NCBI RefSeq assembly: GCF_026210795.1
Contig: NC_089430.1
Coordinates: forward strand, 5,270,001 to 5,334,000
DNA: 64,000 nt
Origin: Rhizophagus irregularis
Taxonomy: Eukaryota
Reading direction: 5' to 3'
In this document: positions 9,551 to 53,380 of the stretch, in pieces
How the letters are laid out: each line of letters opens with the position of its first letter
Numbering within the stretch: position 1 is the first letter of the stretch
Program-made: the position numbers and the translations under genes
Notes under the pieces: generated by a model
Database searches by the model: none
Told to the model about the DNA's origin: nothing
The model's input: the letters and a program-made list of their open reading frames with translations, nothing else

Positions 9551-9556
9551 TCTAAC

Positions 9557-14365: not shown

Positions 14366-17300
14366 CTAGTTTATGATCTTTGTCCAAAACTTTTTTCTAT
14401 TCGATATTTTGAACCTAAAAAAAAAATAAAATAATATATTGAATACGAATAATATAAAACTTACATCTTAATATTCAGTTGAGAAATATTAATTTGTAAA
14501 GATTCTATTTAATAAAAAGTTTTATTAGTATCTTTAACTGATTTGCATTTTTAAAATAACAAAATTATTATTAATAATAATACCTGAAGATTCCTTGCTT
14601 ATTATATTATCATATTGTTCATCAGAATTTTTTATTTTAGGCCTACAAAAAAAAAATAGTATATTAAATATAAATAATATTATTAATCATTAATCAGATA
14701 ATTAAAAAACTTACATTTTATTATTATTCAATTGAGAAATATCAAGTTGTAAAGATTCTATTTAATAAAAAGTTTTATTAGTATCTTTAAAAACTGATTT
14801 GCATTTTAAATAACAAAATTATTAAATGATACCTGAAAATTTCTCGCTAATTATATTATCATTTTGTTCATAATAATCGTCGGAATTTTTTGGTTCAGGA
14901 AGATTATTAAAATCGAGTAATCTACTTGTATAAATAGCTTCTGAATGTGTATTATATGATATCCCTAAACTAGTTGAAGTTATACTGCTATTTGATGAAT
15001 TATTACTTATCTCATCTGCTTCCTTAATTTGTGCTCGTAATTCTATCGTTTGTTCATTATTAGATTCATATTGCCATCTAAATAAAATATTAATTATTTC
15101 TTTTGCTATTGGTCTGCTTAATGGGTTTGCATCTAAGCATCTTTTAATTAAATGTACAATTAATTGTGGTACTTTAATGTTAAACCTTGGTCTAAGTCCT
15201 TTGCAAATTTTTATTGCTAAATTATTATCATGTTTTAAATCATGATATGGGGGCAATCCAGAAATTACTTCATACATTATTATACCAAAACTATATATAT
15301 CGGCAGCTTTGGTATAATTTTGTCCTCTTAAAATTTCAGGAGCTATATAAGGTAAAACACCATATATCTTGTTTTTTGTACCTTCTAATTCATTAAATTC
15401 ATTATAATTTGCAGGTTTACATAATCCCATATCAGTTATAGCAGTTTTATATTTAAACTTTAAAATATTTCCAATATGCAAATCTCGATGAATAAATTCC
15501 TTTTCATGAATACATTTAAGTCCAACAATAATATACTGTAAATATTCAAACATTTTATTCCAGTTAAGCATATTATGTTCTTTGTCTAAATAATTTCGTA
15601 GATTTCCATCTTCTGCATATTCTAGGACCATTATATAATTTTTCGTTTTTGGATCCTGAGTTATTCCATAGAATCTAACAATTATATCATTATCCATTTT
15701 CACTTTATTATGCAGCATGATCTATGATGTAAATGTAAATATACAGTATATATTAGTAAAGCTAACAAAATCAAAAGTAATATTAGATTTATAAGATTAA
15801 TCAAATTATACCTCATTTATAAATTCTAATGTAACATTTTTTGAATTATCTAAACTTTTCAGAGCTACAAGCATATTTTCATTATACCTTTTCCGATTTT
15901 GATGTTCATTATTCCAATTAGTCATATACCCATCAATCCAATTTGCTCTATACACTTTGCCAAATCCACCTTTAGCAATATATTCAATATTATAAAATCT
16001 ATCATAAGGTATCCATTCTAATACTTCTTTTACATCTTTATGGGATGATAGCTGAGTATCTTGAATAAATTTATCAATATCATCATTACCACTAGTCCAA
16101 TCTATGAATTTATATTGAAAATTTATTGTGTTACATATACTATTACATTTTTTACATTTATTTTTCAAAACCAATAAATAACTTTTTGTTTCCAGATCTT
16201 GAGTTATCCCATAAAATTCATATTTTATTTTAATCTATAAATGTAATAATATTTAGTAAAATTAAAGTATTCAAAATTTACTAAATAATTTTATCATACC
16301 TTATTTGTAAATTTTAATGTAAGAGTAGTATTTAAGCTCTTCAAATTCACAATCATATTGTGACCTTCTCTTTTCCAATTTTGTTTTTTATAATCCCATT
16401 CACTTATGTATCCATCAATCCAATTTGCTCTATACACTTTTCCAAATTTATCTTTTGCTATATATTTAATATCATACAATCTATTGTTAGGTATCCATTC
16501 TAATGCTTTTCCTGTATTATCATGAGCTGATAGCTGAGTATCTTGAATAAATTTATCAATATAATTATTACCACTAGTCCAATCTATGAATTTATGTTGA
16601 AAGTTTATTGTGTTACATATACTATTACACTTTTTACATTTATTATTCAAAATCATTAAATAATAATTCTTTGTTTCTGGATATTGAGTTATTCCATAAA
16701 ATTTATATTCTATTTTAATCTATAAATGTAATAATACTTAGTAGAAATTAAAATATTCAAAATTTTGCTAAATAAATTTATCATACCTTATTTGTAAATT
16801 CTATTGTAACATTTTTTGAATTATTTAAATTCTTCAAGTTTACAAACATATTATAATTTTCTCTTTTCCAATTTTGATTTTTGCTATCCCAATTAGTTAT
16901 ATAACCATCAATCCAATTTGCTCTATACACTTTGCCAAATTCATCTTCTGCAATATATTTAATATTATATAATCTATCATAAGGTATCCATTCTAATGCA
17001 TCTTTTAAATCATTATGAGATGATGACTGAGTATCTTGAATAAATTTATCAATATCATTATAACCACTGGTCCAATCTATGAATTTATGTTGAAAGTGTA
17101 TTGTATTACATATACTATCACACTTTTTGCAATCATAATTCAAAACTATCATATAATTATCTGTTTCTGGATCTTGAGTTATTCCAAAAGGTATATTGAT
17201 CTACAAATACAAATATATTAGTAGAAATTAGAAACTTCAAAATTTTGTTAAATAAAAATTTATTACAGTACCTCATTTTCAAATTCTATTGTAATATTTT

Positions 17301-19128
17301 TTAAATTATTTACTCTCTTCAAATTTACAAGCCTATTATGATCTCTTTTCCAATTTTGATTATTATCATCCCAATAACTTATATTTCCATCAATCCAATT
17401 TGCTTTATACACATTACCAAACTTATTTTTTGCAATATCATCTAATCTATCATAAGGTATCCATTCTAATGCATTTGATATTTTACTATATCTATGAGCT
17501 AATAGCTGAGTATTTTGAATAAATTTATCAATATCATTATTACCACTAGTCCAATCTATAAATTTATGTTGAAAGTTTATTGTGTTACATATACTGTCAC
17601 ATTTTTTACATTTTTTATTCAAAACCATCATATAATTATTTGTTTCTGGATCCTGAGTTATTCCATAAAATTCATATTTTATTTTAATCTATAAAATGTA
17701 TTAATATTTAGTAGAAATTAAAATATTCAAAATTTTGCTAAATAAATTTATTATACCTTATTTGTAAATTCTATTGTAACATTTTTTGAATTATTTAAAT
17801 TCTTCAAATTCACAAACATATTATAATCTTCTCTTTTCCAATTTTGATTTTTGCTATCCCAATTATTTATACTACCATCAATCCAATTTGCTCTATACAC
17901 TTTGCCAAATTCATCTTCTGCAATATATTTAATATTATATAATCTATCATAAGGTATCCATTCTAATGCTTTCTTTATATTATTATGGGCTGACAGCTGA
18001 GTATCTTGAATCAATTTATCAATATCATTATTACCACTAGTCCAATCTATAAATTTATATTGAAAGTGTATTGTATCACACATTCTACTGTAACACTTTT
18101 TACATTTATTATTTAAAACCATCATATAATTTTTTGTTTCTGGATCTTGAGTTATTCCAAAAGGTATATTAATCTACAAATACAAATATCTTAGTAGAAT
18201 TAAAAACTTCAAAATTTATTGTATTAAATTTATTATACCTCATTTTCAAATTCTATTTTAATATTTTTTAAAGAATTTACTCTCTTCAAATTCACAAGCC
18301 TATTATGACCTTCTCTTTTCCAATTTTGATTTTTATCATCCCAATGTTTTATATTTCCATTAATCCAATTTGCTTTATACACGTTGCCAAACTTATTTTT
18401 TACAATATCATCCAGTCTATCATAAGGTATCCATTCTAATGCTTCATTTATATCTGCATTATCATGAGCTGATAGCTGAGTCTCTTGAATCAATATATCA
18501 ATATCATTATTACCACTAGTCCAATCTATAAATTTATGTTGAAAGTTTATTGTGTTACACACATTTCTATTACACTTTTTACATTTATTATTCAAAACCA
18601 TCATATAATTTTTTGTTTCTGGATCTTGAGTTATTCCAAAAGGTATATTGATCTACAAATACAAATATATTAGTAGAAATTAGAAACTTCAAAATTTTGT
18701 TAAATAAAAATTCATTATAGTACCTCATTTTCAAATTCTATTTTAATATTTTTTAAAGAATTTACTCTCTTCAAATTCACAAGCCTATTATGACCTTCTC
18801 TTTTCCAATTTTGATTTTTATCATCCCAATGTTTTATATTTCCATTAATCCAATTTGCTTTATACACGTTGCCAAACTTATTTTTTACAATATCATCCAT
18901 TCTATCATAAGGTATCCATTCTAATGCATTTGATATTTCACTGTTTTTATGAGCCATTAGCTGAGTATGTTGAATAAATTCATCAATATTATTATTACCA
19001 CTAGTCCAATTTTCAAAATTTTGTTGAAAATGAATTGCATTACATGTATAATTACATTTATTACATTTTTTAACATGTGATGATTTAATTAATTTATTAA
19101 TAACTTTGATAAAAGGGTTCATTGACAT
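14366..19128 (-). CDS. TKL-type kinase A with 7 tandem N-lobe modules (about 1329 aa)
   Basis: Exons 19128-18724, 18652-18239, 18173-17757, 17688-17272, 17200-16787, 16719-16300, 16234-15812, kinase exon 15721-14833, tail 14757-14715, 14642-14584, 14504-14465, 14414-14366; all GT-AG and in frame; GGFGKVY, VALK, HRDLHIGN, DMG, APE, DIYSFG. Confidence 0.9.
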
Positions 19129-19200
19129 TTTTAAACTATAAATGAATTCAAGTTAATAGGATATCAAGGATAAATGAAAAAATTTTAAACCTTATTATAA

Positions 19201-19352
19201 CGAATTAATTGAATTATGCAATGATGCGTTGTGTAACAATTTTTTTTTACACCGTGGAATGCGGATGTTGATCAAAATCAATACGGAATTTTTCGGATGT
19301 CATTGTTTAACAAATTATGCAATGATGCATTGTGTAACAAATTTTTTTTCAC
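19201..19352 (-). promoter_or_regulatory. Upstream block shared by the kinase paralogs (candidate promoter)
   Basis: GAATTATGCAATGATGCRTTGTG and/or GAATTTTTCGGATG recur at about 28660/29911, 53465-53520 and 56020-56055; locally duplicated here; function not shown. Confidence 0.4.
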
Positions 19353-19354
19353 GT

Positions 19355-19580
19355 ATAATAAGAAGTTCTAAGTGTATGGTCTCCTATGTGACAGTTACAC
19401 AGGTGATAAATAACATGACGGTCAAACACGTGATTTAGAGTGGCCAAAATGCTATTAATCACCTGTGTATTGTTCACACCCCTTATTTTACACACTGTTA
19501 CACACTGCTAAATATCACCATACACCACACAGGTGGTCGACCCTACACCACTGGTCCACCTGGTATTCGTCTTACCGGTA
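19355..19580. mobile_element. Possible degenerate MITE
   Basis: Absent from paralogous upstream regions; internal inverted repeat ACACAGGTGAT...ATCACCTGTGT; GTATAATA at both edges. Confidence 0.35.
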
Positions 19581-20479
19581 TAATAAATGGTAAAAAGTTA
19601 TATCGTGAATTTAATTTTCGTAAATAATAAAGAATAAATTTTGTAAGTTCAAATTTTGGAATCGGTTAATACTTAATACTATCAAATGGTTAAAGATTCA
19701 AAAAAAAATTGTTTTTTTTAGAGAAAAGAAAACTTATGAAATAAAAATAATTTACCAAAAAAATAAAATATTTGTGAAATACACGTAGAAACTTTTAGGA
19801 AAAAAAAAAGATTTAGGGAAGATGGTTATATACAGATAATTTAAATCACGTCTTAATAACAAATAAGAAAACGCCTATTTTTCTTATTACTAATTTTTAA
19901 TTTTTGCATCATTTCGCAGTATGAGTTATTCGCCAGTTAGCTAAAATACCATATACTGTAATAGCACATGATATTCATGCTAAATACTAATAAAAATTTA
20001 GTACGATTGCTAAACTTAACTATTAAGAATTTTTGTTTTAAAAAAATATTCTGATTTAACTTCTTAATAGTTTCTTTATGTAACATAATATAAAAAGTAT
20101 TTATTATCCATATTGATTGATTTATTAATTTTAGATATTAACTTTATCAAATTGGGTTTTAAAACATTATGGCCATTCTAAATTGTGAGAAGCTTGGAGA
20201 GCAAAGTTTAGAATAACGTAAAAATTCTGCATTTGTATTTACGAAATCAGATAAATTTTTATCATACTGAGCTTTATGACATTAGATGTTTAACAAGAAA
20301 TTATCATGCATATATTATAGTTAAAACACTAATTGATATAATGATACTTTTAACTTTGTTTTTTGCAAATTATTTATTAGATATTTCTTAATGGAAGCTT
20401 ACCATTTTCAAAAAATTCAACCAGTATTAATATTTGTTACATGATAGTCTGATTACGTAGTACTGCTGTTTATATAGTG

Positions 20480-20868
20480 TAAAGTTTGGAATCGATTAAG
20501 GTTAATCGATTAATTAATCGACTAAGACGGTTAATCGATTAAGGTATCTCAAAAATCGGTTAATCGATTAAAATTATCAACCCATAATTCCGGTCAAATT
20601 ATCTAATGCGGCCCAGAGCTGTGAATTTTTGGTCACGTGTTCTCCGAACTTGGAAGAATTTGTATTAATTTTTTAATGATCATAATAATAAATAAGACTT
20701 TCCTATAACTAAATGTATGATCAAAAACAATTTGGTGCAATCTGCGGTCAAAAAAAAAAAAAAAAAAAAATTTTTAATATTTTAATATTAATTGATTATT
20801 AATCGATTAGGGCCCTTGGTTAATCGATTATTAATCGATTAAGGTTTTTTGGTCGGTTCTAACATCTA
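20480..20868. mobile_element. hAT-type MITE
   Basis: 8-bp TSD ATATAGTG (20472-20479, 20869-20876); imperfect TIRs; subterminal TTAATCGATTA repeats; absent from paralogous site near 56940. Confidence 0.8.
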
Positions 20869-23800: not shown

Positions 23801-24089
23801 GTATGGATGTTTGCCAATTTAGGTTAATCTAGGTAAATTAAGTTTATCTTAAAAAATTCCATTGTAGCATTAAAAAAAATTACATCCTCTAGAAAAAAAA
23901 TATCTTACTAATTAATATGAAAAAAAATTTCCAGAAAAATTAATTATAACGATCTATTGTCATGAAAAAAAGAAAAATTCCCCAGAAAAATTAATTATAA
24001 CGATCTATTGTTACAAAAATTAAATATTATGTAAGTCTATTATTGAGCTTGATACAAAAAAAAATATTATTATTATTAATAATAAGAAT

Positions 24090-24700
24090 CGGGAAAAAAG
24101 GTAATTGCCGTGGCGCCCGCACCATTGATCTGATCACCGATCCAAACCTAAATGGTGAAAGAATGTATTCGGAAAAATAAATTCGGTTTGAAAGAAAAAA
24201 AAGCCAACCGAAAAAGGAAAAGAGGAAAAAAAGACAACTGAAAAAAAAATAGAAAAAATAGAAAAAAAAAATTTGTGGGGAGGGACAAAGAGAAGAATCG
24301 GGTTGAAAAAAGAAACCGAAAGGAATAAAAAAGAAAAAATAAAAAAATTCAAAAAAAAATTAATATGGATATGGTCTAAAAAAAAAGACCAAAAAAATAA
24401 TATAAGTCTTAAAAGATTATTTAATAAAAAAAAATAATAATTTTTAAAAAAAACCAAAAAAAAAGAGGAAAAAAAAATTCGAAAAAAAAGAAAGAACCAT
24501 CGGTTCAAGAAAAAAAAATGAAAATTAAAAAAGGGGGAACCGAAAAAATTTAGATCGGTTGGAAAAAATTTGAAAAAAAAAATAAATATTTGAAAAAACG
24601 ATTAATATTTCATTAACCGGAATTGGATGGGTCTTAACTATAAAGAATACGGATCAGCAATTCAAAATTAATTTATACAGGCGTTTGTCACACAAACACC
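24090..24700. repeat. A-rich low-complexity repeat segment
   Basis: Strong purine skew with recurring AACCGAAAAA/TCGGTT motifs; no credible ORF. Confidence 0.4.
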
Positions 24701-25147
24701 ATTTTTTGAAATGCGTTTATTCATATATAAAATCTTCTATAAAATAATTTTAAAAGATTTCGAATTTTATCAAATAAATACAATAATAATAAAATGAATA
24801 CAAATATAATTTAAATAACTGATCATTAAAATTTAAAACCCTGTTTAACGTAATTCTCAAAAAAAAATTTGCCTATTAGTGAAAAAAAAACAAAAAAAAA
24901 AAATACACTAACTCAACGTTAATATTTAAAAAAACTGATGTTAAACAGAGCTTTAAATTGTAATGATTTAAATAAAAAAAAAGTTTTCAAAAAAAAAAAA
25001 AAAAAATAGTAAACTAGTTTATAACCTTGTTTAAACCTTTATCTGTGGTTATTAAATTCGATATTTTGAACCTAAAAAAAAAAATAATATAATATATTGA
25101 ATATGAATAATACTCATTATTAACCACATGAATTAAAAACTCACATC

Positions 25148-28100
25148 TTAATTAATACCTCCATTGAGGAAATTAATTTGTAAAGATTCTATTTAATAAA
25201 AAGTCTTATTAGTAACTTTAAAAAACTGATTTGCATTTTAATAACAAAATTATTAGATGATACCTGAAAATTCCTTGCTAATTATATTATCATTTTGTTC
25301 ATAATAATCGTCAGAATTTTTTGGTTCAGAAAGATTATTAAAATTGAGTAATCTACTTGTATAAATAGCTTCTGAATGTGTATTATATGATATCCCTGAA
25401 TTAGTTGAAATTATACTGCTATTTGATGAATTATTGTTTTTCTCATCTGTTTCTTTAATTTGTGCTCGCAATTTTACTGTTTGTTCTTTATTTGGTTCAT
25501 ATTGCCATATGTATAAAATGTCGTTAATTTTTTCCGCTTTCGGTCGATTTGATGGAACAGCATCTAAACATTCCTTAATTAAAGATACAATTAATTGTGG
25601 CACTTTAATGTTAAACCAAGGTCTTAACCCTTGGCAAATTTTTAATGCCAAATTATTATCATGTTCTAAATTGTGATATGGGGGCAATCCAGATATTACT
25701 TCATATATTATTATGCCAAAACTATAAATATCAGAAGCTTTGGTATAATTTTGTCCTCTTAAAACTTCAGGAGCTATATAAGGTAAAACACCATATATGT
25801 TGTTTTTTGCATTTTCTAATTCATTATAATTTGCAGGTTTACATAATCCCATGTCAGCTATAGCAGTTTTATATTTAAACTTTAATATATTTCCAATATG
25901 CAAATCTCGATGAATTAATTCCTTTTCATGAATACATTTAAGTCCAAGTATAATATCTCGTAAATAATCAATTTTTTTACTCCAATTAAGCTTACTATAT
26001 TCTTTATCTAAGTAATTTCGTAAACTTCCATTTTCCGCATAATTTAAAACCATCATATAATTTTTTGTTTCTGGATCTTGAGTTACTCCATAAAATTCAG
26101 CAATATAATTAGTATTTATTCCTCCTTTGTTATGTGACGCAATCTATGTGAAAGTAATAATATAAAATATATTGGCAAAATTAAAATTTTAGGTATTATG
26201 AATATAACAATAAATTTATTTAATCAATTACCTCATTCATAAATTCTAATGTAACATTTTTTGAATTATCCAAACTTTTCAGAGCTATAATCATATTTTG
26301 ATTATATCTTTTCCAATTTTGATCTTTAATATTCCAATTAGACATATATCCATCAATCCAATTTGCTTTATATATTTTGCCAAATCCACCTTTTGCAATA
26401 TATTCAATATTATAAAATCTATCGTAGGGAATCCATTCTAATACGTTCTTTATATCGTCATCGTCGTGAGCTAATAGTTGAGTATCTTGTATAAATTTAT
26501 CAACATTATTATTACCGCTAGTCCAATCTAAAAATTTCTGTTGAAAGTGAATTGTATTACATATATCATTACATTTTTCACATATATTATTTAAAACCAT
26601 CATGTAACTTGTTGTTTCTGGATCTCGTGTTATACCATAAATTCTATATTCCATTTTAATCTATAAATGTAATAATGTTTTAGTAAAATCTAAATATTTA
26701 AAATTCATTAAATATATATATAATAAGTTTATCATACCTTATTTGTAAATTCTAATGTAAGATTACCCGAATTATTTAAACTTTTCAAATTCACAAACAT
26801 ATTATGACCTTTTCTTTCCCAATTTTGATTTTTATCATCCCAATTATTTATATTTCCATCAATCCAAATTACTCTATACGCTTTGCCAAATTCATCTTTT
26901 GTAATATGCAATCTTTCATAAGGTATCCATTCTAACGCTTCATTTACATCTCTAACAGATAATAGCTGAGCATCTTGAATAAATTTATCAATATCATCAT
27001 TACCACTGGTCCAATTTTTAAAATTTTGTTGAAAATGTATTGCATAACACGCGCAATTACATTTTTTACATTTATTACTATCCAAAACCATCATATAATG
27101 TTTTGTTTCTGGATCTCGAGTTATTCCATAGGGTTGATTGATCTACACATACAAAATATATTAGTAAAAATTAAGAACTTCAAAATTTTGTTAAATAAAA
27201 ATTTATTATAGTACCTCATTTTCAAATTCTTCTGCAATATTTTTTAAATCATTTACTCTCTTCAAATTCACAAGCCTATTATGACCTTCTCTTTTCCAAT
27301 TTTGATTTTTATCATCCCAATAACTTATATTTCCATCAATCCAATTTACTTTATGCACTTTACCAAATTCATCTTTTGTAATATGCAATCTATCATAAGG
27401 TATCCATTCTAACGCTTTATTTACATCATTAGCAGAAAATAGCTGAGCATCTTGAATAAATTTATCACTATCATCATCACCGCTGGTCCAATTTTTAAAA
27501 TTTTGTTGAAAATGTATTGCATAACATGCATAATTACATTTTTTACATTTATTACTATCCAAAACCATCATATAATGTTTTGTTTCTGGATCTTGAGTTA
27601 TTCCATAGGGTTTACGGATCTAACACACACAAAATATATTTAGTAAAAATTAAGAACTTCAATTTTGTAATAAGAAATTATTATACCTCATCATTAAATT
27701 CTGTAATATTTTTTGGATCATTTAAATTCTTCAAATACACTAACATATTACAACCTTCTCTTTTCCAACATTGATTTTTATCATCCCAATAACTTATATT
27801 TCCATCGATCCAATTTACTCTATCTTTTGTAATATGCAATCTATCATAAGGTATCCATTCTAACACTTCATTTACATCTTTAGCAGAAAATAGCTGAGTA
27901 TCCTGAATAAATTTATCAATATCATCATTACCACTGGTCCAATTTTCAAAATTTTGTTGAAAATGTATTGCATAACATGCACAATTACATTTTTCACATT
28001 TATTACTATCCAAAACCATCATATAATGTTTTGTTTCTGAATCTCGAGTTATTCCATTGGGTTTATTGATCTACACATACAAAATGTATTAGTAAAAATT

Positions 28101-28537
28101 AAGAACTTCAAAATTTTTGTTAAATTAAAGACTTATTATACCTCATTTGTTAATTCTATTGTAATATTTTTTAGATTATTTAAATTCTTCAAATATATTA
28201 ACATATTATGACCTTCTCTTGTCCAATTTTGATTTTTATCATCCCAACAACTTATTTTTCCATCAATCCAATTTGCTTTATATACTTTGCCAAGCTTATT
28301 TTTTGTAATATCATCCAGTCTATTATAAGGTATCCATTCTAATGCATTTGATATTTCATTGTCTTTATGAGCCATTAGCTGAGTATGTTGAATAAATTCA
28401 TTAATATCATTATTACCACTAGTCCAATTTTCAAAATTTTGTTGAAAATGTTTTGCATTACATGTATAGTTACATTTTTCACATTTCTCAACATGTGATG
28501 ACTTAATTGGTTCCTTATCTTTGATAACAGTACTCAT
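25148..28537 (-). CDS. TKL-type kinase B with 5 tandem N-lobe modules (about 979 aa)
   Basis: Exons 28537-28142, 28070-27687, 27619-27215, 27142-26738, 26660-26232, kinase exon 26143-25264, tail 25188-25148; GGFGKIY, IALK, HRDLHIGN, DMG, APE. Confidence 0.9.
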
Positions 28538-29910: not shown

Positions 29911-31309
29911 CAATGATGCATTGTGTAACAAATTTTTTTTACACAGAATTTTTTCGGATGTCGATCAAAATCAATGGTGAAAAGTTAGAGTAGGATTTTG
30001 ATTTTTATATATACAGTAATACTAAATAATAAATTTTGTGAGTTCAAATTTGGGTATCGGTTAATACTAACAAATGGTCAAATTTAGATATCTTAAATCA
30101 TGACTTAATAATAGATTGAGAGTTGCCTATTTTTTTCTCATTTGCATCATTTCGCAACACAAGTTATTTTACCAGTCAGCTAATATACCATATAAACTGG
30201 TGAAATAACACATGAATTTCATAATCATGTTACATACCAACAAAAATTTAGTATTATTGCTAAACTTAACTATAAACGTTTCTATATCAGTTATTGCAAA
30301 ACTATTGGATTGTGTGTTTATCTCTTCGTAATCCATTTATGTATAAAGAAAAACGAGAAAAATGGAAAGAGAATTTTAGAAGTGATATAGGATAACTGAA
30401 GGTATAAGCTAATAATTAGAAGAATCTCTTCAATAATCGATTTGTGATCTTACTCGTATAGTGGATAACCTCAATGCTGTACAGTGTCACAGAATTTGGA
30501 ATGAAAACAATAAGAGGAATCTAGAGTTATGGACGTGTGAATTTTAATAGGAATTTACTATAAGTTATGTAAAAGTATCATATAAAAGATTATTATTAGA
30601 GATTTTTTTTTGACGATTATAAGTTTTGGTTTAATTAGTTGATGGTACACCGTACACCCAACGTTTTATTAATACTAGTAATTCACAAATTGAAATTAAC
30701 GAAGTTGTTTTATATTTTTTTGTTAAATTATATGACACAAATTGATCCTTCACCAAAAGAATTCTTACTTCTGGTCAGTGGACAGTGATTACTGACTGCT
30801 AAGATAAGAAAATATGCGTTTTTTATATTTTCATATAATATTGTACTTTGTCAATAGTAAATATAAATAAATAATATAAAATCTGAAACTTTTATTTTCC
30901 TTTATTTGTATATAAAATTTGCGATTAAAAATTGATTTAAATTAGATCAAATAAATACATTAATTAAAATATTTCAAGTCATAAATAAATATTGAGTTAA
31001 TTCTTGACCTTATTTTGCGTCTTATATATCGTTAAAATTTATAATTTATTTAACCAATTAATAACTATATAGTTCAATATATGATTATGATTTAAAATTT
31101 AAAATCCTGTTTAGCGTAATTCTCAATATAATGTAAAAAAAAAATGTCATATTAATCGTTAGAAAAGCAAAAAAAAACTATTTTGAATGTACTAAAGCAA
31201 AGGTTAAGAAAAACCAACGTTAAACAGAATTTTCGAAAAATATAAAATTCTTAAAATAATAATATCATAATATATAAACATTGATTAATTATAACTTTTA
31301 GGCTATGAC

Positions 31310-32600
31310 CTTTGCTCAAAACATTTTTACCTACAAACAATAAAATAATATATTGAATACGAATCATTAACCATATAGATTAAAAAATTTACATCTTAAT
31401 CAATATTCAATTAAGATATATCAATTCAATTTGTAAAGATTCTATTTAACAAATTAAAAGTTTTATTAGTATCTTTAAAAACTGATTTTCATTTTTAAAA
31501 TAATAAAATTATTTAAATAGAAAATTTCTTAATTTACACGTGCACTTTCACGTGACTGTAAAAAATTTGTTAATAAATACAATTTAAAAAGAAACATATG
31601 GTATGTGCAATTCGATTTTGTTTAAAGCAGCAAAGTTGATTTTGAACGTCAATTTTGACTTATTTAACAAATTCGATTCGTTATTTTTTTGCCCAGCATC
31701 AAATCATTCAAATGATCAGTATAGAAAATTTAAAACCAGTATTTGAAACACCCCATATACAAATAAATTACAAATTCCTCGCTAATTATATAATCGTTGG
31801 AATTTTTGGTTCAGGAAGATTATTAAAATTGAGTAATCTATTTGTATAAATAGCTTCTGAATGTGTATTATACTATGATATGCCTAAAATAGTTAAAGTT
31901 ATATTGTTATTTAACAAATTATTGTTTATTTCATCCGTTTCCTTAATTTGTGATCATAATTCAATTGTTTTTGAGTTGTATCACATCTTCGTAAAACATT
32001 GTTAATTCCTAAACAGGTCTAAATCCTTTATTGCTATATCCTTATTATGGCTTAAATCATAATATAGTAGGGTGATCCAGAAATTATATCAACAGCTTTG
32101 GTGTCAGGAGCTGTATAAGGTATGTAAAACAATATATGTATTATTTTTCGTACTTTCTGATATATAACAATCCGCAGGTTATAATTTAAGTTTTAATATT
32201 TTTTTAATTTGTACTCGATGAATTATTCCTTTTCATGAATAAATCCAAGTTCAAGTATAGCATTTTATAACAATCTTTCGTCTAAATAATTTCGTAAACT
32301 TCCATCATATAATTTTTGTTTCGTTATTAAATTAATGAAAAAATTGTCTATTTTTGTATATTAACAATTTTAGTAAACCTAATAAATTACCAATTATGTA
32401 AATCACTCCATTCATAAATAATATCATGAAAATCTATTACAAGGTATTCATTATTTATTTATATAATTGTAATGAGCTGATAGTTGAGTGTCTTGAATAA
32501 ATTTATCAATATTATCATTGCCACTAGTCCAATTTTTGAAAACGTATTACGTAACATATGCGATTACATTTCTCACAACTTTCAACATGTTGATGACTTT
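31310..32600 (-). pseudogene. Deletion-riddled kinase paralog
   Basis: Remnants of exon 1 (CEKCNRIC, WTSGNDNIDKFIQDTQLSAH), kinase (GSLRNYLD, PYTAPD, HSEAIYTNRLLNFNNLPEP) and the ESLQ tail exon, with many indels. Confidence 0.85.
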
Positions 32601-32604
32601 ATAT

Positions 32605-33672: not shown

Positions 33673-33834
33673 GGTCACACGCCACTATAAACATTGTGCG
33701 TGGGATTTCTGATCACGATGGTATCACAGCACATAAATGAATAAATAAAACGATGATTGTACTGTGTAGTTTCGTAAAAAAAAAAAAAATTCTCTTTTTT
33801 TTTGATTAAATTATTTATTAGTAAATTATTAGTA

Positions 33835-36180
33835 ATGGAAGATGATGGATCAAAAAATAATAAAAAAGATGATTTCGCTGAAAATTTAAAAGACAGTTCT
33901 TTAATGGTTGTTCCATTTGCAAGATTTCTTCCTTTAATTAATGAAATTGAAAATTTTTTTAACGAAATCATCGAATTAGTGGAAGCTGCTGAACATAATC
34001 AACGAACTTGTGAAATATTAAAAAATCGAGTTCGTGTTGCAGAATTAGCCGTACGAGATCTTAGAGATAAAAAAAAAGACAGAGAAGATTTTTTTAATAA
34101 AATAAATTATATACGTTTACAAGAATTATCTACTATTATAAAACAAATTAAAAAATTTATATCAGAAATCTCTCTAATGAAAACTTTGATAAAATACCTT
34201 AAAGAGAAAAGTGTTGAGAAAATTTTTAAAAAATTATGTATGGAATTCGACAGTTGTATTAACTTATTGTCTTTTTCTTTTAACGTTGAAATTGCTGATG
34301 AACTTGAACAATTAAAATCCGATCAAGATGATTTATTTAAAGTAAGATTAAAAAAATTGAGTTTTATTATTGAAACATAAAATTAATTTATATTATTTTA
34401 ATAAATTATAGTATCTACAAGGAATGGTGGCTGGTATTGATGATAACGACTGCTTCGCAGACTCAAGTAAAAAGTTTTTTTCAACAATTGTAAAAGTTAA
34501 TGCAATGAATAATACAATGATAGGAAAATTTAAAAGTCAAACAAAAATTAGTGATGTCTTTCAGGTACATCCACTAGAATTTTCTGATTATGAAATTGAT
34601 GATAATGGGAAAACAGATGAATATAGACGTGTAAATAAATGGTATAAAAAAACAAATAAAGGTGCTGAATTCGCTTTTAAAACTATCTCTGGAGAGGACG
34701 AAGTGATTGTACAAAAACAAGTTGCAATTCTTAAAGAACTTCATGATTGGCAAAACATCATAAAATTTCACGGAATGATTTCTGATGGAAATCAATGGTA
34801 TTTGGTGACTGAATGGGCCGAACGTGGAAATTTGCGTGAATTTTATCAAAATAAAAATTATATCGACCTTAAATCAAAATTACGTATATCTCTTGATATT
34901 GCTCGTGGATTAAATTTTTTAAGAACTGTAGAGGTAATTATATAACCAGCTTTTATTTAATTAACGAAAAATTTTTTTTTTAATTTTTTTTTTTAGATTT
35001 TTCATCGAGATATTAGGGCTGAAAATATATTAATTACACTTAATGAGACAGCAAAACTTGCAAATTTCAAATTAATTCGTTCCCAACCCGGCGGACAGGC
35101 TATATGTTTTCCAAACCTAAACTTAGACCAAACTCGTTATTGTGCACCTGAATTGTTGGAGGGGGTGCTAAATTACAAACATGAACAAAGATGTGGTGAG
35201 GTTTATAGTTTTGGAATCTTACTTTGGGAAATTGCTGAAGAAAGAATTCCACATCAGGGTATTAATGGTATTAGGGATATAATTGATAAGGTATGTAATA
35301 AAAAGTATAGAGAACCATTTTCTGAAAATAGTCAAATGCCAGAAAAATTCAAACAATTAGAAATTGAAGGTATGTAAAAGAAAATATTTTAAATTACAAT
35401 TTTATTTGTTGTACTTAATTGGTTTCTTTTTTTTTACATATTTTTTTAGCCGTTCATCATGATCCAGATTTTAGGCCAAAAATCACGAAAATATTTGAAG
35501 TTCTTAATAATTGTTTCAAGGAATATTCACAAGTTACATCAAGTTCTAGTGGCCCAAACCTAAGAGGAAACAGTAGAAACAACTCTATGCAAAAGTCTCG
35601 TCCAAAACGAGCAGACAACATTGATGCATACGCCCTTCCAGATCTTGAATCATTTAAATATATGACACTTGCTGATGCAGAAAAACAACATAAGTTGTAT
35701 AATAATCATGATAAACTAGTTGGAGATGTAATAACTGCATATAAATGTTTTGAAGCTTATGCAAACCTTGGTAATACAGGAGGTACAGCAAACCGTAATC
35801 AAATCAAAGCAAAATATTATAAAGCATATTACATTTCAAAAGAATTGATTGAGGACCCTACAAATAAAGATGAAATTGTTGCTGAATTATTTAAAGAAGT
35901 TGCTAATGATGAAGCAAATGGATTCCCTGAAGCAAAATTAAGATATGGAGATTGTTTGTATCATGGCAAAGGTGTTGATCAAAATTTTTCAGAAGCTCTT
36001 AAATATTTAGAAAAAGCTGCTGAAGATGGTTTTAAAGTAGCAATGTATAACACTGGAGGTATGTATTACAATGGTATTGGTTGTACGAAAGATATAGAAA
36101 AAGCTAAATATTATATGAAATTAGCTGCTTATGGTGATTATGAACTTGCTATTAAATTTTGTAAGGAACATGACATATAA
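33835..36180 (+). CDS. MLKL-like protein: N-terminal four-helix bundle (HeLo-like) + pseudokinase + Sel1-like repeats (710 aa)
   Basis: Exons 33835-34341, 34412-34933, 34997-35369, 35450-36180, in frame; helical NTD LINEI...AEHNQRTCEILKNRV; kinase fold FAFK, HRDIRAEN, NFK for DFG, YCAPE, EVYSFG; Sel1 YGDCLYHGKGVDQNFSEA and GGMYYNGIGCTKDIEKA. NTD identity is recognition, not a search result. Confidence 0.85.
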
Positions 36181-41760: not shown

Positions 41761-42094
41761 TTTTTATTATCATTCGTTCTTGATTTTGTGATTTTTTCTT
41801 ATTGTTAAATGACTTTTTTTTACTATTATTATACATTTGTTGAATTTTTATTTATTAATTCGTGATCCGTCTCCGAACCAGTGAAAACTACTAATAAATT
41901 TCAGGGAACTGGTTTTACAAATTAATTATAACTTAAATGGCTTTTGAGCTGATTCGCCCAGAATTTTTATTTTTTTAAGTGTTATATAATAATGTTCTGG
42001 GTATATTGAATGATAAATTTGCATCATCAAATATTAATATCACAAGTTTGATCAATATATACTTGCCATTTAAGGCTACGTTGTTATACAAATT

Positions 42095-45021: not shown

Positions 45022-48000
45022 CTAACTTTTTCTGTTCGATATTTTGAACCTTAAAAAAATAAAATAATATATTGAATACGAATAATATAAAATTTACATC
45101 TCAATATTCAATTGAGATATATCAATTTGTAAAGATTCTATTTAATAAAAGTTTTATTAGTAACTTTAAAACTGATTTACATTTTTAAAATAACAAAATA
45201 TTAATAATAATACCTGAAGATTCATTGCTTATTATATTAATATTATCATATTGTTCATCAGAATTTTTTATTTTGGGCCTACAAAAAAAAAATAGTATAT
45301 TAAATATAAATGATATTATTAATCAATAATCATATAAGTTAAAAAACTTACATTTTATTATTATTCAATTGAGAAATATCAATCTGTAAAGATTCTATTT
45401 AATAACAAGATTTATTAGTATCTTTAAAACTGATTTGCATTTTTAAAATAACAAAATTTTTATTATTAATAATACCTGAAGATTCCTTGTTTATTATATT
45501 ATCATATTGTTCATCAGAATTTTTTATTTTGGACCTACAAAAAAAAAATAGTATATTAAATATAAATAATATTATTATTAATCATTAATCAAATAAATTA
45601 AAAAACTTACATTTTATTATTATTTAATTGAGATAGTATATTAATTTGTAAAGTTTCTATTTAATAAAAGGATTTATTAGTATCTTTAAAAAACTAGTAA
45701 TTTACATTTTAAATAACAAAATTATTAAATGATACCTGAAAATTTCTTGCTAATTATATTATCATTTTGTTCATAATAATCGTCAGAATTTTTTTGTTCT
45801 GGAAGATTATTAAAATCAAGTAATCTACTTGCATAAGTGGCTTCTGAATGTGTATTATATGATATTCCTAAGTTATTTGAAGTTATATCGCTATTTGACG
45901 AATTATTGTTTATTTCATCTGCTTCCTTAATTTGTGCTTGTAATTCTATTGTTTGTTTATCATTTGGTTCATATTGCCATTTAAGTAAAATTTTGTATAT
46001 GTCTTCTGCTGTTGGTCGATTTAGCGGATTGGAATCCAAGCACTTTTTAATTAAGTGCACAATTAATTGTGGTACTTTAATGTTAAACATTGGTCTAAGT
46101 CCTTTGCAAACTTTTATTGCTAAATTATTATCATGATTTAAATCATGATATGGGGGTAATCCAGAAATTACTTCATACATTATTATACCAAAACTATAAA
46201 TATCGGCAGCTGTTGTATAATTTTGTCCTCTTAAAATTTCAGGAGCTATATAAGGTAAAACGCCATATGTCTTATTTTTCGTATTTTCTGATGTATAACA
46301 ATCTGCAGGTTTACATAATCCCATATCAGTTATAGTAGTTTTATTTTTAAACTTTAAAATATTTCCAATATGTAAATCTCGATGGATTAATTCCTTTTCA
46401 TGAATACATTTAAGTCCAATAATAGTATAATGTAAATATTTAAACATTTCAATCCAATTAAGCTTATTATATTCTTTATCTAAATAATTTCGTAAACTTC
46501 CATCTTCTGCATATTCTAAGACCATTATATAATTTTTCGTTTTTGGATCCTGAGTTATTCCATAGAATCTGACAATTGCATTATTATCCATTTTCACTTT
46601 ATTATGCAGCATGATCTATGATGTAAATGTAAAAATAAAAATATATTAGTAAAACCGACAATCTAGGTATTATGATCAAAATTATCAAACTAAATTAATC
46701 AAATTATACCTCATTCATAAATGCTAATGTAACATTTTTTGAATTGTCTAAACTTTTCAGAGCTACAAACATAGTATCTTTATTATATCTTTTCCAATTT
46801 TGGTTACTATCATCCCAATCAATTAGATAACCATCAATCCAATTTGCTCTATACACTTTACCAAACCCACCTTTTGCAATATATATAATATCATAAAATC
46901 TATCATAAGGTATCCATTCTAAAGCATTTGTAAATAGTTCAATGTTATTATGTACTGATAACTGACTGTCTTGAATAAATATATCAATATTATTATTATC
47001 ACTGGTCCAATTTTCAAAATTTTGTTGAAAATGCATTGCATGACATGCATAATTACATTTTTTACATATAGTATTATTCAAAACCATCATATAACTTTTT
47101 GTTTCTGGATCTTGAGTTATTCCAAAAGGTATATTGATCTACAAATACAAATATATTAGTAGAAATTAAAAATTTCAAAATTTTATTAGTATTTTTTATT
47201 ATACCTCATCAATAAGTTTTATTCTAATATTCTTTAAATTATTTAAACTTTTTAGAATTACTACTCTACTTCCATATCTTATCCACTTTTCATTTTTATT
47301 ATCCCAACTCTCTATTTCTCCACCAATCCAATTTGCTCTATACATTTTACTAAATTCATCAGCATCTGCAATATATTTAATATTATATAATCTACTATAA
47401 GGTATCCATTCTAACACTTCTTTCAAATCATTATGAGCTGATAACTGAGTATCTTGAATAAATTTATCAATATCATTATTACCACTAGTCCAATCCATAA
47501 ATTTATGTTGGAAGTGCATTGTATTACATATACTATTACACTTTTTACAATTATAATTCCAAACCATAATATAATTTCTTGTTTCTGGATCTTGAGTTAT
47601 TTCAAAAGGTACATTGATCTACAAATACAAATATATTAGTGGAAATTAAGAACTTCAAAATTTTATTGACATTTAATTTATTATACCTCATTTGTGAATT
47701 TTATTGTAATATTTTTTGAATTGCATAAACTTTTCAGAATTATATCCTCACTTCTATATCTTATCCAATTATGATTTGTATTATTCAATTTGTATATTTC
47801 TCCATCAATCCAATTTGCTTTATACACTTTGACAAACTTATTTTTTGAAATATCACTATCATAAGGTATCTGTTCTAATGTATATTTTTTTACTAAGCAA
47901 TAAGTATGTTCTGACAGCTCGGTATCTTGAATAAATTTATCATTATCACTAGTACAATTTTCAAAATTTTGTTGAAAATCCATTGGATTGCATATTGCAT

Positions 48001-51000
48001 TACACTTTTTACATTTATTATTCAAAACTATCATATAATTTTTTGTTTCTGAATCTTGAGTTATTCCATAAAATTCATAATCTATTTTAATCTACAAATG
48101 TAATAATACTTAGTAAAAATTAAAATATTCAAATTATGCTAAATAATTTTACCATACCTTATTTGTAAATTTTATTGGAATATTTTTTGAATTATTTAAA
48201 CTTTTCAAATTCACAAACATATTACAACCTTCTCTTTTCCAATTTTGATATTTATTATCCCAATCACTTATATTTCCATCAATCCAATTTGCTCTATACA
48301 CTTTGCCAAATTCATCTTCTGCAATATATTTAATATTATAAAAACTATCATAAGGTATCCATTCTAATACTTCTTTTAAATCTTTATGAGATGATAACTG
48401 AGTATCTTGAATAAGTTTATCAATATCATTATTACCACTAGTCCAATCTATGAATTTATGTTGAAAGTGAATTGCATTACACATCTTATTACATTCTTTA
48501 CATTTATTATTCAAAATCATTAAATAGTTTTTTGTTTCTGGATCTTGAGTTATTCCATAAAATTCATATTCTATTTCAGTCTATAAATGTAATAACACTT
48601 AGTAGAAATTAAAATATTCAAAATTTTGCTAAATAGATTTATCATACCTTGTTTGTAAATTCTATTGTAATATTTTTTGAATTATTTAAACTCTTCAAAT
48701 TCACAAACATATTACAACATTCTTTTTTCCAATTTTGACTTTTGCTATCCCAATTAGTTATATATCCATCAATCCAATTTGCTCTATACACTTTGCCAAA
48801 TTCATCTTCTGCAATATATTTAATATTATATAATCTATCATAAGGTATCCATTCTAATACTTCTTTTAAATCTTTATGAGATGATAACTGAGTATCTTGA
48901 ATAAATTTATCAATATCATTATTACCACTAGTCCAATCTATGAATTTATATTGAAAGTGTATTGTATTACATATACTACTGCACTTTTTACATTTATAAT
49001 TCAAAACTATCATATAATTATCTGTTTTTGGATCTTGAGTTATTCCAAAAGGTATATTGACCTACAAATATAATTATATTAGTAGAAATTAAAAACTTTA
49101 AAACTTTATTGATATTAAATTTATATACCTCATTTGTAAATTCTATTGCAATGTTTTTTAAATTATTTAAACTCTTCAGAATTACATTCCCACTTCTATT
49201 TCTTTTCCAATTTTGATTTACACTATTCCAATATTCTATTTTTCCATCAATCCAATTTGCTTTATATACTTTACCAAACTTATTTTTCGAAAAATCATCC
49301 AGTCTATCATAAGGTATCCATTCTAATGCTTTTGTTGCATCATGAGCTGATAACTGAGTATCTTGAATAAATTTATCAATATCATTATTACCACTAGTCC
49401 AATCTATGAATTTATGTTGAAAGTGAATTGCATTACATATCTTATTACATTCTTTACATTTATTATTCAAAATCATTAAATAATTTTTTGTTTCTGGATC
49501 TTGAGTTATTCCATAAAATTCATATTCTATTTTAATCTGTAAATGTAATAATACTTAGTAAAAATCAAAATATTCAAATTTTGATAAATAATTTTACCAT
49601 ACCTTATTTGTAAATTTTGTTGTAACATTTTTTGAATTATTTAAACTTTTCAAATTCACAAACATATTACAATCTTCTCTTTTCCAATTTTGATATTTAT
49701 TTTTCCAACCACTTATATTTCCATCAATCCAATTTGCTCTATATATTCCAGATTCTTCAATATATTTAATATCATATAATCTATTATAAGGAATCCATTC
49801 TAATGCTTTTTTTGTACTATCATCATGAGCTGATAGCTGAGAATCCTGAATAAATTTATCAATATCATTATTACCACTGGTCCAATCTAAGAATTTATGT
49901 TGAAAGTGAATTGCATTACACATCTTATTACATTCTTTACATTTGTTATTCAAAATTATTAAATAGTTTTTTGTTTCTGGATCTTGAGTTATTCCATAAA
50001 ATTCATAATCTATTTTAATCTATAAATGTAATAATACTTAGTAAAAATTAAAATATTTAAATTTTGCTAAATAAGTTTACTATACCTTATTTTTAAATTT
50101 TATTGTAACATTTTTTGAATTATTTAAATTCTTCAAATTTACAAACATATTATAACCTTCTCTTTCCCAATTTTGATTATGGCTAACCCAATTAGTTATA
50201 TATCCATCAATCCAATTTGCTCTATACACTTTGCCAAATTCATCTTCTGCAATATATTTAATATTATATAATCTATCATAAGGTATCCATTCTAATACTT
50301 CTTTTAAATCTTTATCATGAGATGATAACTGAGTAACTCGAATAAGTTTATCAATACCATTATTACCACTAGTCCAATCTATGAATTTATGTTGAAAGTG
50401 AATTGCATTACACATCTTATTACATTCTTTACATTTGTTATTCAAAACTATTAAATAGTTTTTTGTTTCTGGATCTTGAGTTATTCCATATAATTTATAA
50501 TCTATTTTAATCTATAAATGTAATAATACTTAGTGAAAATTAAAATATTTAAATTTTGCTAAATAAGTTTACTGTACCTTATTTGTAAATTTTATTGTAA
50601 TATTTTTTGAATTAAAACTCTTCAAATTTACAAACATATTATAACCTTCTCTTTCCCAATTTTGATTATGGCTAACCCAATTAGTTATATATCCATCAAT
50701 CCAATTTGCTCTATACACTTTGCCAAATTTATCTTCTGCAATATATTTAATATTATATAATCTATCATAAGGTATCCATTCTAATACTTCTTTTAAATCT
50801 TTATAATGAAATGATAACTGAGTATCTCGAATAAGTTTATCAATACCATTATTACCACTAGTCCAATCTATGAATTTATGTCGAAAGTGAATTGCATTAC
50901 ACATCTTATTACATTCTTTACATTTATTATTCAAAACTATTAAATAGTTTTTTGTTTCTGGATCTTGAGTTATTCCATATAATTTATAATCTATTTTAAT

Positions 51001-53380
51001 CTATAAATGTAATAATACTTAGTAAAAATTAAAATATTTAAATTTTGCTAAATAAGTTTACTGTACCTTATTTGTAAATTTTATTGTAATATTTTTTGAA
51101 TTATTTAAACTCTTCAAATTTACAAACATATTATAACCTTCTCTTTTCCAATTTTGAATTTTGCTATCAAAATTAGTTATATATCCATCAATCCAATTTG
51201 CTCTATACACTTTGCCAAATTCATCTTCTGCAATATATTTAATATTATATAATCTATCATAAGGTATCCATTCTAACATTTCTTTTAAATCTTTATGAGA
51301 TGATAACTGAGTATCTTGAATAAATTTATCAATATCATTATTACCACTAGTCCAATCTATGAATTTATATTGAAAGTATAATGCATTACATTTACTGTTA
51401 CACTTTTTACATTCATTATTCAAAACCATCATGTAATTGTTTGTTTCCGGATCTTGAGTTATTCCAAAAGGTATATCGATCTATAAATACAAATAAATTA
51501 GTAGAAATTAAAAAAATCAAATTTTACTGGTATTAAATTTATTATACCTCATTTGTAAATTCTATTGTAATGTTTTTTAAATTACTTAAATTTTTCAGTA
51601 TTACATCCTCACTTCTATATCTTTTCCAATTTTGATTTTCATTATCCCAATATTCTATTCTTCCATCAATCCAATTTGCTTTATACACTTTACCAAACTT
51701 ATTTTTTGAAAAATCATCCAGTCTATCATAAGGTATCCATTCTAATGCATTTCCTGCCCAATAATTATGTACTGATAACTGAGTATCTTGAATAAATTTA
51801 TCAATATCATTATTACCACTAGTCCAATCTATGAATTTATATTGAAAGTGTAATGTATTACATTTACTGTTACACTTTTTACATTTATTATTCAAAACCA
51901 TCATGTAATTGTTTGTTTCCGGATCTTGAGTTATTCCAAAAGGTATGTCGATCTATAAATACAAATAAATTAGTAAAAATTAAAAAAATCAAATTTTACT
52001 GGTATTAAATTTATTATACCTCATTTGTAAATTCTATTGCAATATTTTTTAAATTACTTAAATTTTTCAGTATTACATCCTCACTTCTATATCTTTTCCA
52101 ATTTTGATTTTCATTATCCCAATATTCTATTCTTCCATCAATCCAATTTGCTTTATACACTTTACCAAACTTATTTTTTGAAAAATCATCCAGTCTATCA
52201 TAAGGTATCCATTCTAATGCATTTCCTACCCAATAATTATGTACTGATAACTGAGTATTTTGAATAAATTTATCAATATCACTATTACCACTAGTCCAAT
52301 CTATGAATTTATGCTGAAAGTATATTGCGTCACATTTACTGTTACATGTTTTACATTCATTACTATTTAAAACCATAATGTAATTGTTTGTTTCCGGATC
52401 TTGAGTTATTCCAAAAGGCATATTGATCTACAAATACAAATATATTAGTAGAAATTAAAAAACTTCAAAATTTATTGGTCGGTATTAAGTTTATTATACC
52501 TCATTTGTAAATTCCATTGCAATGTTTTTTAAATTACTTAAACTTTTCAGAAAAACATCCTCATTTTTATATCTTGCCCAATTTTTATTTTCATTATTCC
52601 AATGTATTATTTTTCCATCAATCCAATTTGCTTTGTACACTTTGCCAAACATATATTTTGCAATATCGTCCAGTCTATCATAAGGTATCCATTCCAATGC
52701 ATTTGATATTTCACTATCTTTATGAGATGATAATTGAGTATCCTGAATAAATTTATCAATATCGTTATTACCACTAGTCCAATCTATGAATTTATATTGA
52801 AAGTGTATTGCATTACATATACTGTTACACTTTTTACATATATTACTATTTTTTAAAACCATAATATAATTATCTGTTTCCGGATCTTGAGTTATTCCAA
52901 AAGGTATATTGACCTACAAATACAAGCATATTAGTAGAAATTAAAAACTTCAAAATTTTACTGGTATTAAATTTATTATACCTCCTCATTTTTAAATTTT
53001 ATTGTAATATTTTTTGAATTATTTAAACTTTTCAGAATTACATCCTTACTTCCATATCTTATCCAATTTTTATTTTTATTATCCCAATATTTTATTTTTC
53101 CATCGATCCAATTTGCTTTATACACTTTGCCAAATTTATTTTTTGCAAAATTATCTAGTCTATCATAAGGTATCCATTCCAATGCATTTGATATTTCACT
53201 ATCTTTATGAGCTGATAACTGAGTATCTTGAATAAATTTATCAATATTGTCATTACCACTAGTCCAATTTTTGAAATTTCGCTGAAAATGCATTGCGTGA
53301 CATGCATAATTACATTTTTCACAACTCTTGACACGTGATAACTTAGTTATCTTCTTAATACTTTTGATAAAGGGATCCAT
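45022..53380 (-). CDS. TKL-type kinase C with 14 tandem N-lobe modules (about 2319 aa)
   Basis: Exons 53380-52982, 52913-52500, 52427-52020, 51952-51548, 51480-51067, 51000-50578, 50511-50086, 50019-49603, 49536-49129, 49061-48648, 48580-48158, 48091-47687, 47618-47205, 47138-46710, kinase exon 46615-45736, six tail exons to about 45022; all module exons are multiples of 3. Confidence 0.9.

Follow-up and report, generated by a model that had tools for sequence, protein, structure and literature searches.

Gene organization of the locus

The 64,000-nucleotide (nt) stretch of the Rhizophagus irregularis genome analyzed here (NC_089430.1, positions 5,270,001-5,334,000; GC content 25%), hereafter the window, whose coordinates are used throughout, carries three neighbouring genes, G1, G2, and G3, all on the minus strand. 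Within each gene, a module of 128-142 amino acids (aa) related to the N-terminal lobe (N-lobe) of a protein kinase is repeated in tandem, and one complete tyrosine-kinase-like (TKL)-type kinase closes the array (Table 1). The 7, 5, and 14 modules counted in a first-pass annotation, made from the DNA letters alone, hold with the catalytic N-lobe included, leaving 6, 4, and 13 isolated N-lobes once it is subtracted, and the copy number varies between genes, as had been claimed. Every exon is open, as reported for the module exons, and the joined frames are continuous after splicing, yielding proteins of 1269, 969, and 2229 aa when the final exon of each gene is taken up to the first stop codon. 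The introns measure 65-94 nt with GT-AG borders, and all 26 array introns are in phase 0 at a single position of helix αC (EFxNE/I, the slash marking the intron). The modules and the C-terminal lobe (C-lobe), single in each gene, account for the three proteins entirely except for an 81-aa tail. G1 matches the public model P0428 with 100% identity across 1266 aa, and G2 is identical (100%) to P0030 and P0426, all three labelled Rhizophagus irregularis, while no model identical to G3 was found among the 437 homologous proteins fetched (see below), two of the three homolog searches having ended at ~2000 aa. The public models, named just "kinase-like domain-containing protein" or after yeast kinases, point to short tail exons beyond the last traced exons, and such exons probably follow the last one traced in G1, for which the public model comprises 1316 aa.

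Table 1. Positions of the three array genes and of selected exons, introns, and domains in the window
Feature	Positions	Strand	Details
G1, six isolated N-lobe repeats and a complete TKL-type kinase	14825..19128	-	8 exons traced, 1269 aa
G1 exons	19128-18724, 18652-18239, 18173-17757, 17688-17272, 17200-16787, 16719-16300, 16234-15812, 15721-14825	-	
Example of an internal repeat exon (G1), phase 0-0	17272..17688	-	β4-β5 of module 3, then module 4 from the knuckle through αC
G1 catalytic domain	14825..16234	-	GGFG, VALK, αC Glu, HRDLHIGN, DMG, APE; 90-nt phase-0 αC intron 15811-15722
G2, four isolated N-lobe repeats and a complete kinase	25256..28537	-	6 exons, 969 aa
G2 exons	28537-28142, 28070-27687, 27619-27215, 27142-26738, 26660-26232, 26143-25256	-	
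G2 catalytic domain	25256..26660	-	GGFG, IALK, HRDLHIGN, DMG, APE; αC intron 26231-26144
G3, thirteen isolated N-lobe repeats and a complete kinase	45728..53380	-	15 exons, 2229 aa
G3 catalytic domain	45728..47138	-	GGFG, VALK, HRDLHIGN, DMG, APE; αC intron 46709-46616
G3 intron 3	51953..52019	-	67 nt, GT-AG; X4 zero-mismatch contig ends at exon end 52020
G3 intron 9	49062..49128	-	67 nt, GT-AG; X4 zero-mismatch contig ends at 49127

The repeated module and the terminal kinase

The module comprises, in order, a CxxC-x3-C knuckle, a WTSGN..IDKFIQ helix, a LEWIPY motif, strands β1-β2, an inserted hairpin, β3, αC, β4, and β5, and the next module begins where a real kinase goes on as VL(E/N)Y, a segment that we take to be the hinge. 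This restart ahead of the next CxxC stands as first described, but exon and module do not coincide, the intron lying inside αC: an internal exon encodes β4-β5 of one module and the next module as far as αC, the hinge-to-CxxC restart falls within it, and the exon is a circular permutation of the module. The knuckle had been written CX2CX3CX3(H/N), and its last position is indeed H in 19 and N in 4 of the 26 modules, but Y in two and D in one. GGFG and (V/I)ALK are confined to the last module in the three genes, as annotated, while the divergent versions of the other modules are wider than stated, also including KNKLG, KDEFG, KYMFG, and EESG in the G-loop and IYLK, VFLK, and IILK in β3. Absent from the first-pass annotation is a shortening behind αC: the αC-to-β4 gap counts 5 or 8 residues in the repeats of G1-G3 versus 18 in their catalytic lobes, the repeats being devoid of 10 or 13 residues of the αC end and of what we take to be the αC-β4 loop. 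This shortening is lineage-specific, because the β3-β4 distance has a median of 24 in 261 repeats versus 33 in 68 catalytic lobes of the window lineage, and is 31 versus 32.5 in a second lineage. The repeats resemble their own catalytic lobe at 58-64% identity and each other at a mean of 69-72%, with protein differences of 8-48%.

The terminal domains of G1, G2, and G3 all keep the G-loop, the β3 Lys, the αC Glu (NE), and the HRD, DxG, and APE motifs, and, judged by these residues, are predicted to be active TKL-type kinases. Pfam analysis of G2 reports PF07714 (148 bits, cut-off 23.1) and PF00069 (129 bits), and the C-terminal part of G1 scores 127.7 bits with PF07714. The kinase alone was matched in the Pfam scan of G2, which returned no NACHT or NB-ARC domain, and Pfam assigns no family to the repeats.

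Predicted fold of the repeats

The AlphaFold model of G2 (P0030, 99-row alignment) has a mean predicted local distance difference test (pLDDT) of 77.8 and a predicted template modelling score (pTM) of 0.51, with the repeats at ~60-90 pLDDT and the same order of elements in every repeat; that of P0104, a three-module relative without C-lobe (111 rows), reaches 86.3 and 0.67. A VIA structural comparison of the P0104 model with 48,161 chains lists 50 matches, all of them kinases, and the alignments fall mostly on residues 64-153 or 197-290, i.e., on single modules, where they span ~65-80 N-lobe residues. The top matches are PTK7 (Z 9.0, root-mean-square deviation (rmsd) 2.7, 74 aa) and RIP3 (Z 8.8, rmsd 2.4, 71 aa), and the MLKL pseudokinase and JAK2 JH2 follow at Z 8.6; a Z near 8 is modest by itself, and the weight rests on the uniform list of kinases together with sequence homology. 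Foldseek analysis of the module-only model against the PDB and a viral library returned nothing below E 0.001 (E 0.008 or worse), a PDB sequence search with the repeat profile gave a best E of 1.2, and the Atlas clusters are unnamed or kinase, all eukaryotic, with Mucoromycota most frequent. All these fold searches scarcely cover the first ~60 residues of each module, hereafter the cap. On the strength of the models, a helically capped kinase N-lobe is the fold predicted for each repeat; this prediction, the structural matches, and the conservation pattern described below all support the proposal that a half-kinase serves as the repeat unit, and the objection that the modules might not fold as N-lobes finds no echo in the predictions. 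A necroptosis-like function, as the top ranks of RIPK1, RIP3, and MLKL might suggest, was considered and dropped, because the structural match rows nearly tie among tyrosine kinase (TK) and TKL folds.

Decay and constraint

Conservation was compared in sequences from G1-G3 and 277 fetched proteins, which supply 852 repeats and 121 catalytic lobes. The G-loop glycines (0.98 in the catalytic lobes) and the β3 Ala (0.95) are non-consensus in the repeats, the β3 Lys goes from 0.97 to 0.82, and the αC Glu from 0.93 to 0.57. The EW, AxW, R93, QL, and YG positions remain at 0.81-0.99 in the repeats, cap and core being unchanged, and both sets conserve the motifs SGN..ID.FI..QL and EW to the same degree. 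Among proteins with at least three module hits and a C-lobe, G[GS]F[GSA] is kept in 6 of 1213 upstream modules versus 214 of 252 last modules. What defines pseudokinases is that at least one catalytic residue is missing (PMC13519141), and the repeats, devoid of HRD and DFG, share this property; they do not form the bilobed kinase fold, since the chain restarts after β5.

Codon models applied to 23 window repeats return a dN/dS ratio (ω) of 0.58 (Muse-Gaut, MG) and 0.39 (Goldman-Yang, GY), with likelihood ratio test (LRT) values of 29 and 76 against 1. When the module is split, the last ~25 codons belonging to neither half, the cap half has an ω of 0.44 (LRT 24.5), indicating purifying selection. 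Pairwise NG86 estimates are 0.40-0.53 for the C-lobes versus 0.75-1.04 for the repeats, whose median is 0.98 (kappa 2.5) with a method that is biased upward at such AT content. Pooled pairwise ω values of 2.3-3.2 for the β2-β3 insert were set aside as non-independent and recombination-prone. The open frames are not a matter of chance: indels come in multiples of three in 35 of 47 calls in exons versus 1 of 23 in introns. In a neutral simulation, 16% of exons were still open at 0.05 changes per site, to be read with the fact that real exons share ancestry and are non-independent.

Distribution among Glomeromycota

Three homolog searches gave 458, 67, and 683 hits and a profile search 3104, of which the best 120, 67, 120, and 150 were listed; the set of 437 proteins fetched is redundant across assemblies and biased towards long arrays. 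The architecture, modules followed by one C-lobe, is found in 257 of them with 2 to 17 full modules, the longest array being that of P0286 (R. clarus, 2709 aa), with 17 modules ahead of its single C-lobe. The others are module-only (110), have under two full modules (63), or fall elsewhere (7, including six true tandem kinases). Array-bearing proteins carry the labels R. irregularis, R. clarus, R. diaphanus, Glomus cerebriforme, Acaulospora morrowiae, and Gigaspora rosea, and arrays occur in three kinase lineages and four genera; outside Glomeromycota, there was no named hit among those looked up, most profile hits having had no look-up. A tabulation of copy number by isolate was rejected, because gene models conflict: models with identical C-lobes disagree on the module count across annotations (9 vs 7, 9 vs 5), and the differences may be annotation noise.

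Seven Gigaspora rosea proteins (P0288, P0292, P0294, P0296, P0305, P0309, and P0322) have 2-4 full modules after an N-terminal region of 250-880 aa, with hydrophobic segments in those read; they are possibly receptor-like kinases, or possibly fused gene models. The true tandem whole-kinase proteins (P0314, P0315, P0318, P0320, P0321, and P0328) have two or three domains, and P0328 also exhibits Sel1 repeats as well as a fungal MACPF-like match that is weak and stays below cut-off.

Recombination and origin of the arrays

Trees of the two halves of the module disagree at 36 splits, and each rejects the other in approximately unbiased (AU) tests (p-AU 4e-11 and 2e-75), so the repeats are mosaics; exchange extends across genes, the modules G1_m5 and G3_m10 being reciprocal nearest neighbours (88%). 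In a tree of a 52-row sample, three branches each contain both repeats and catalytic lobes, and repeats cluster with the catalytic lobes of their own lineage. These lineages diverge at the module front, which carries a three-Cys knuckle (window type), a four-Cys finger (others), or neither (P0122-like arrays). The AU test rejects a single clade for all repeats (p-AU 6e-83), which means three or more array origins or, possibly, a single origin followed by long conversion from the catalytic lobes. In a quick tree of 76 rows, one branch (SH-aLRT 99) unites 19 repeats from Acaulospora and Gigaspora, away from their catalytic lobes, and because they share it, the array of these genera, which we take to be Diversisporales, is old.

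All lineages examined restart just past β5. Since the exon is a circular permutation of the module, the founding duplication would have broken inside exons and ended at the hinge, producing a symmetric hybrid exon of phase 0, which would then have been multiplied and shuffled through unequal crossing-over and conversion. Because the restart sits within the exon, we discarded exon shuffling at intron boundaries as the initial step.

Probable transcription of the upstream repeats

Run X4 consists of contigs whose RNA origin is a guess; among 8 displayed of 200 aligned records, four contigs match G3 without mismatch, in exons 3, 6, 9, and 15. The exon-3 contig ends at the predicted donor with 66 letters remaining, and the exon-9 contig ends two letters (GT) beyond the exon end, these letters being shared with the start of the following exon (Table 1). 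A contig of run X1 runs unspliced through the intron 47686-47619, as DNA would. Comparison of G1 and G2 with three raw-read runs and one contig run was uninformative, giving for the raw runs no joint among 15 displayed of 77; these runs aligned 658-772 reads each, 86-89% of them continuing unlike the stretch. In the comparison with G3, raw run X23 contains mainly paralogue reads (less than 90% alike in 2897 of 3864). The contigs favour transcription and splicing of the upstream repeats: transcripts starting near the last module only, raised at first pass as an objection, are not clearly seen, as zero-mismatch X4 contigs lie in upstream repeat exons and two of them end at predicted donors.

Relation to known systems

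The closest precedent is the wheat protein RWT4, which contains a single partial kinase duplication, KDup, needed for effector binding (10.1101/2024.04.30.591956). As described there, KDup, a short helix with a β-sheet and part of the ATP-binding motif, copies part of the N-terminal region of the kinase in the same protein, lacks an active site, and lies upstream of the active kinase; the repeats of G1-G3 are likewise partial N-terminal copies of their own kinase, placed upstream of it and without active site. RWT4 differs in having one copy, with a proven effector, in a plant kinase-pseudokinase protein, whereas in the fungal genes G1-G3 the N-terminus consists entirely of 4-13 copies (relatives reach 17 modules), without a full pseudokinase. 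Plant tandem kinases and kinase-fusion resistance proteins likewise fuse a dead kinase-derived module to a kinase, and a decoy or sensor logic has been proposed for them; they contain two whole kinase folds, which no chain of G1-G3 has, the extra units here being many and devoid of C-lobe. In fungal NOD-like receptors (NLRs) such as the WD40-containing HNWD proteins of Podospora, repeats that are internally conserved are shuffled within and between genes (PMC13449251). The likeness extends to repeats ~70% or more alike, proximity to transposons, and possibly several independent origins, and similar repeats exchanged by recombination are indeed found here, as measured by the 69-72% mean identity and the incongruent half-trees rather than by the Psim index of that paper; G1-G3, however, have no NACHT or NB-ARC domain, and their repeat is a half-kinase. 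The JAK JH2-JH1 pair and MLKL/RIPK share the TK/TKL-type fold with the repeats, which is no proof of shared function, and in JH2-JH1 a non-catalytic kinase-fold unit precedes the catalytic one; JH2 is one whole bilobed domain.

The arrays are a variant of the integrated partial-kinase idea, and neither plant tandem kinases nor NLRs. The tyrosine-kinase-like family PF07714, to which the terminal domain of G1-G3 belongs, is expanded in Glomeromycota (PMC6123716, PMC8647823), and the excerpts of these papers count the domain with no mention of repeats; accounts of kinase expansion in these fungi, as excerpted, tally domains only (PMC8647823, PMC6123716, PMC8778642, PMC10234402). Full-text searches returned no description of N-lobe arrays among their top matches, which lie outside subscription papers, the original genome papers and supplements included. 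The claim that the architecture has no description thus stands for the arrays in the literature searched, but in RWT4 one such partial duplication of the kinase N-terminal region is already on record. The architecture itself is real and widespread among these fungi, and undescribed as far as searched. It indicates that a kinase N-lobe can persist as a multiplied stand-alone domain, cut at the same hinge in three lineages, contrary to what would be expected of a fold whose two lobes are generally regarded as inseparable. Arbuscular mycorrhizal fungi are the most common plant symbionts, and the arrays give structure to part of their unexplained kinase expansion; the question of what these kinases sense becomes testable with small single modules.

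Possible roles of the arrays

Because the C-lobe is absent, established kinase chemistry implies that the repeats cannot make an ATP site. They retain the surface, and many shuffled variants of a protein's own N-lobe surface likely fit a bait library best. In this interpretation, to which we assign a probability of about 0.45, the chain would be a variable bait array catching proteins aimed at the kinase N-lobe surface and switching the terminal kinase on. Each repeat would display a slightly different copy of the surface targeted by an inhibitor or effector, originating from endobacteria, viruses, mycoparasites, or the plant, and binding would relieve autoinhibition or cluster the kinases, leading to a non-self response; if so, the arrays would be a fungal counterpart of the plant kinase-fusion immune receptors. 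The decoy or sensor role suggested in the first-pass annotation is an analogy with such plant proteins. Several observations weigh against such a bait. The strongest constraint bears on the cap, which a fixed endogenous partner would fit equally. The β1-αC half of the window repeats has an ω of 0.79, indistinguishable from 1; the first-pass annotation had named a dN/dS near 1 at conserved positions as the finding that would undermine its proposal, and these positions lie well below 1, this half alone not being separable from it. Positive selection, suggested by M2a versus M1a on a single tree (p 5e-8 and 0.015), is not robust, because the signal goes when recombination is allowed for by giving each half its own tree (p 0.11 and 0.15). 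The variable loops of the catalytic lobes are about as variable as those of the repeats, no intron-skipping joint appears among 15 displayed of 415 in the G3 run comparison, and these kinase families are reported to be repetitive and more methylated than core genes, favouring drift (PMC8647823).

A possible though doubtful alternative is an internal regulatory scaffold in which capped N-lobes would provide docking or dimer surfaces to a partner from the fungus itself, be it an activator, a chaperone, a substrate, or the kinase itself, with the copy number tuning avidity, autoinhibition, or spacing in a JAK-pseudokinase-like manner. The αC-β4 loop is a dimer element in TKL kinases, and the window-type repeats, which lack it, argue against this role, as do the 2-17 modules per model, the several paralogues per locus, and the mosaic shuffling, which would be unusual for a fixed stoichiometry; in its favour, purifying selection is strongest on the CxxC-WTSGN-EWIPY cap, whose motifs are as conserved in the repeats as in the catalytic lobes, the pTM of the three-module model hints at partly fixed packing, and the Gigaspora relatives place their few modules after a long N-terminal region with hydrophobic segments. 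A scaffold would thus account for the conserved cap as well as a bait does, and for the variable number less well. We consider it unlikely that the arrays are a tolerated by-product of a phase-0 intron and unequal crossing-over multiplying a cassette in a repeat-rich genome, with selection merely purging copies that have frameshifts or misfold, which keeps the terminal kinase in production. The symmetric phase-0 exons, the remnants of long interspersed nuclear elements (LINEs) and the decayed family copy in the window, the relaxed lobe half, the upward-biased median NG86 ω, and the need of the kinase for an open upstream frame in any case all agree with drift, which would explain the lobe half; it would not easily explain the amino-acid constraint on cap and core, the restart just past β5 in every lineage examined, the architecture recurring in 257 of the 437 proteins, or the old branch common to the presumed Diversisporales. 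An assembly or gene-model artefact, or a string of exon copies that precede a one-lobe kinase and are not transcribed, is highly improbable. Module counts do differ among annotations despite identical C-lobes, and many of the 110 module-only models stop at the αC intron, but the arrays are not duplicated reads of one exon, because the repeats differ by 8-48% in protein; moreover, G1 and G2 are letter-identical to public models, indels preserve the frame, and the X4 contigs in upstream exons end at donors. Returning to the bait array, its boldest extension would be that arbuscular mycorrhizal fungi, several times over, made a half-kinase into a shuffling repeat and so arrived at intracellular non-self receptors of a new class. 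Their bait libraries, directed at kinase-targeting proteins of endobacteria, viruses, or plants, would be wired to their own kinase and perhaps to the MLKL-like proteins encoded among the arrays, which combine a four-helix bundle (4HB), a pseudokinase, and Sel1 repeats, a proposal that we regard as speculative.

Neighbouring features in the window

MLKL-like Sel1 proteins have been noted in Glomeromycotina (PMC8778642), and a plant helper MLKL has been reported (10.64898/2026.08.07.743466). Between G2 and G3, a four-exon gene (33778-36180, plus strand) encodes an MLKL_N four-helix bundle (E 7e-6), a kinase-like domain without clear G-loop and with NFK replacing DFG, and Sel1 repeats. Its product is a candidate MLKL-like partner, but with both families highly expanded the adjacency may be chance. 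At ~31000-32600 (minus strand), a decayed family copy retains one N-lobe remnant with many stops, and the 5' fragment of a further copy lies at 55736-56053 (minus strand). The 3' tails of G1 (14450-14880, minus strand) and G3 (45080-45780, minus strand) contain a second small repeat of ~250 nt made up of two mini-exons and introns. LINE-type retroelement remnants with endonuclease and reverse transcriptase flank the cluster at 455-6254 and 57312-63615 (both minus strand), the latter also with a weak RNase H. A 518-aa open frame, partly basic and low-complexity and without Pfam match, occupies 6655-8211 (plus strand). Lastly, a block of ~60-bp tandem repeats, direct and inverted, extends over 8884-11850, and the segment 6344-6609 copies 10886-11153 in inverted orientation at 98%.

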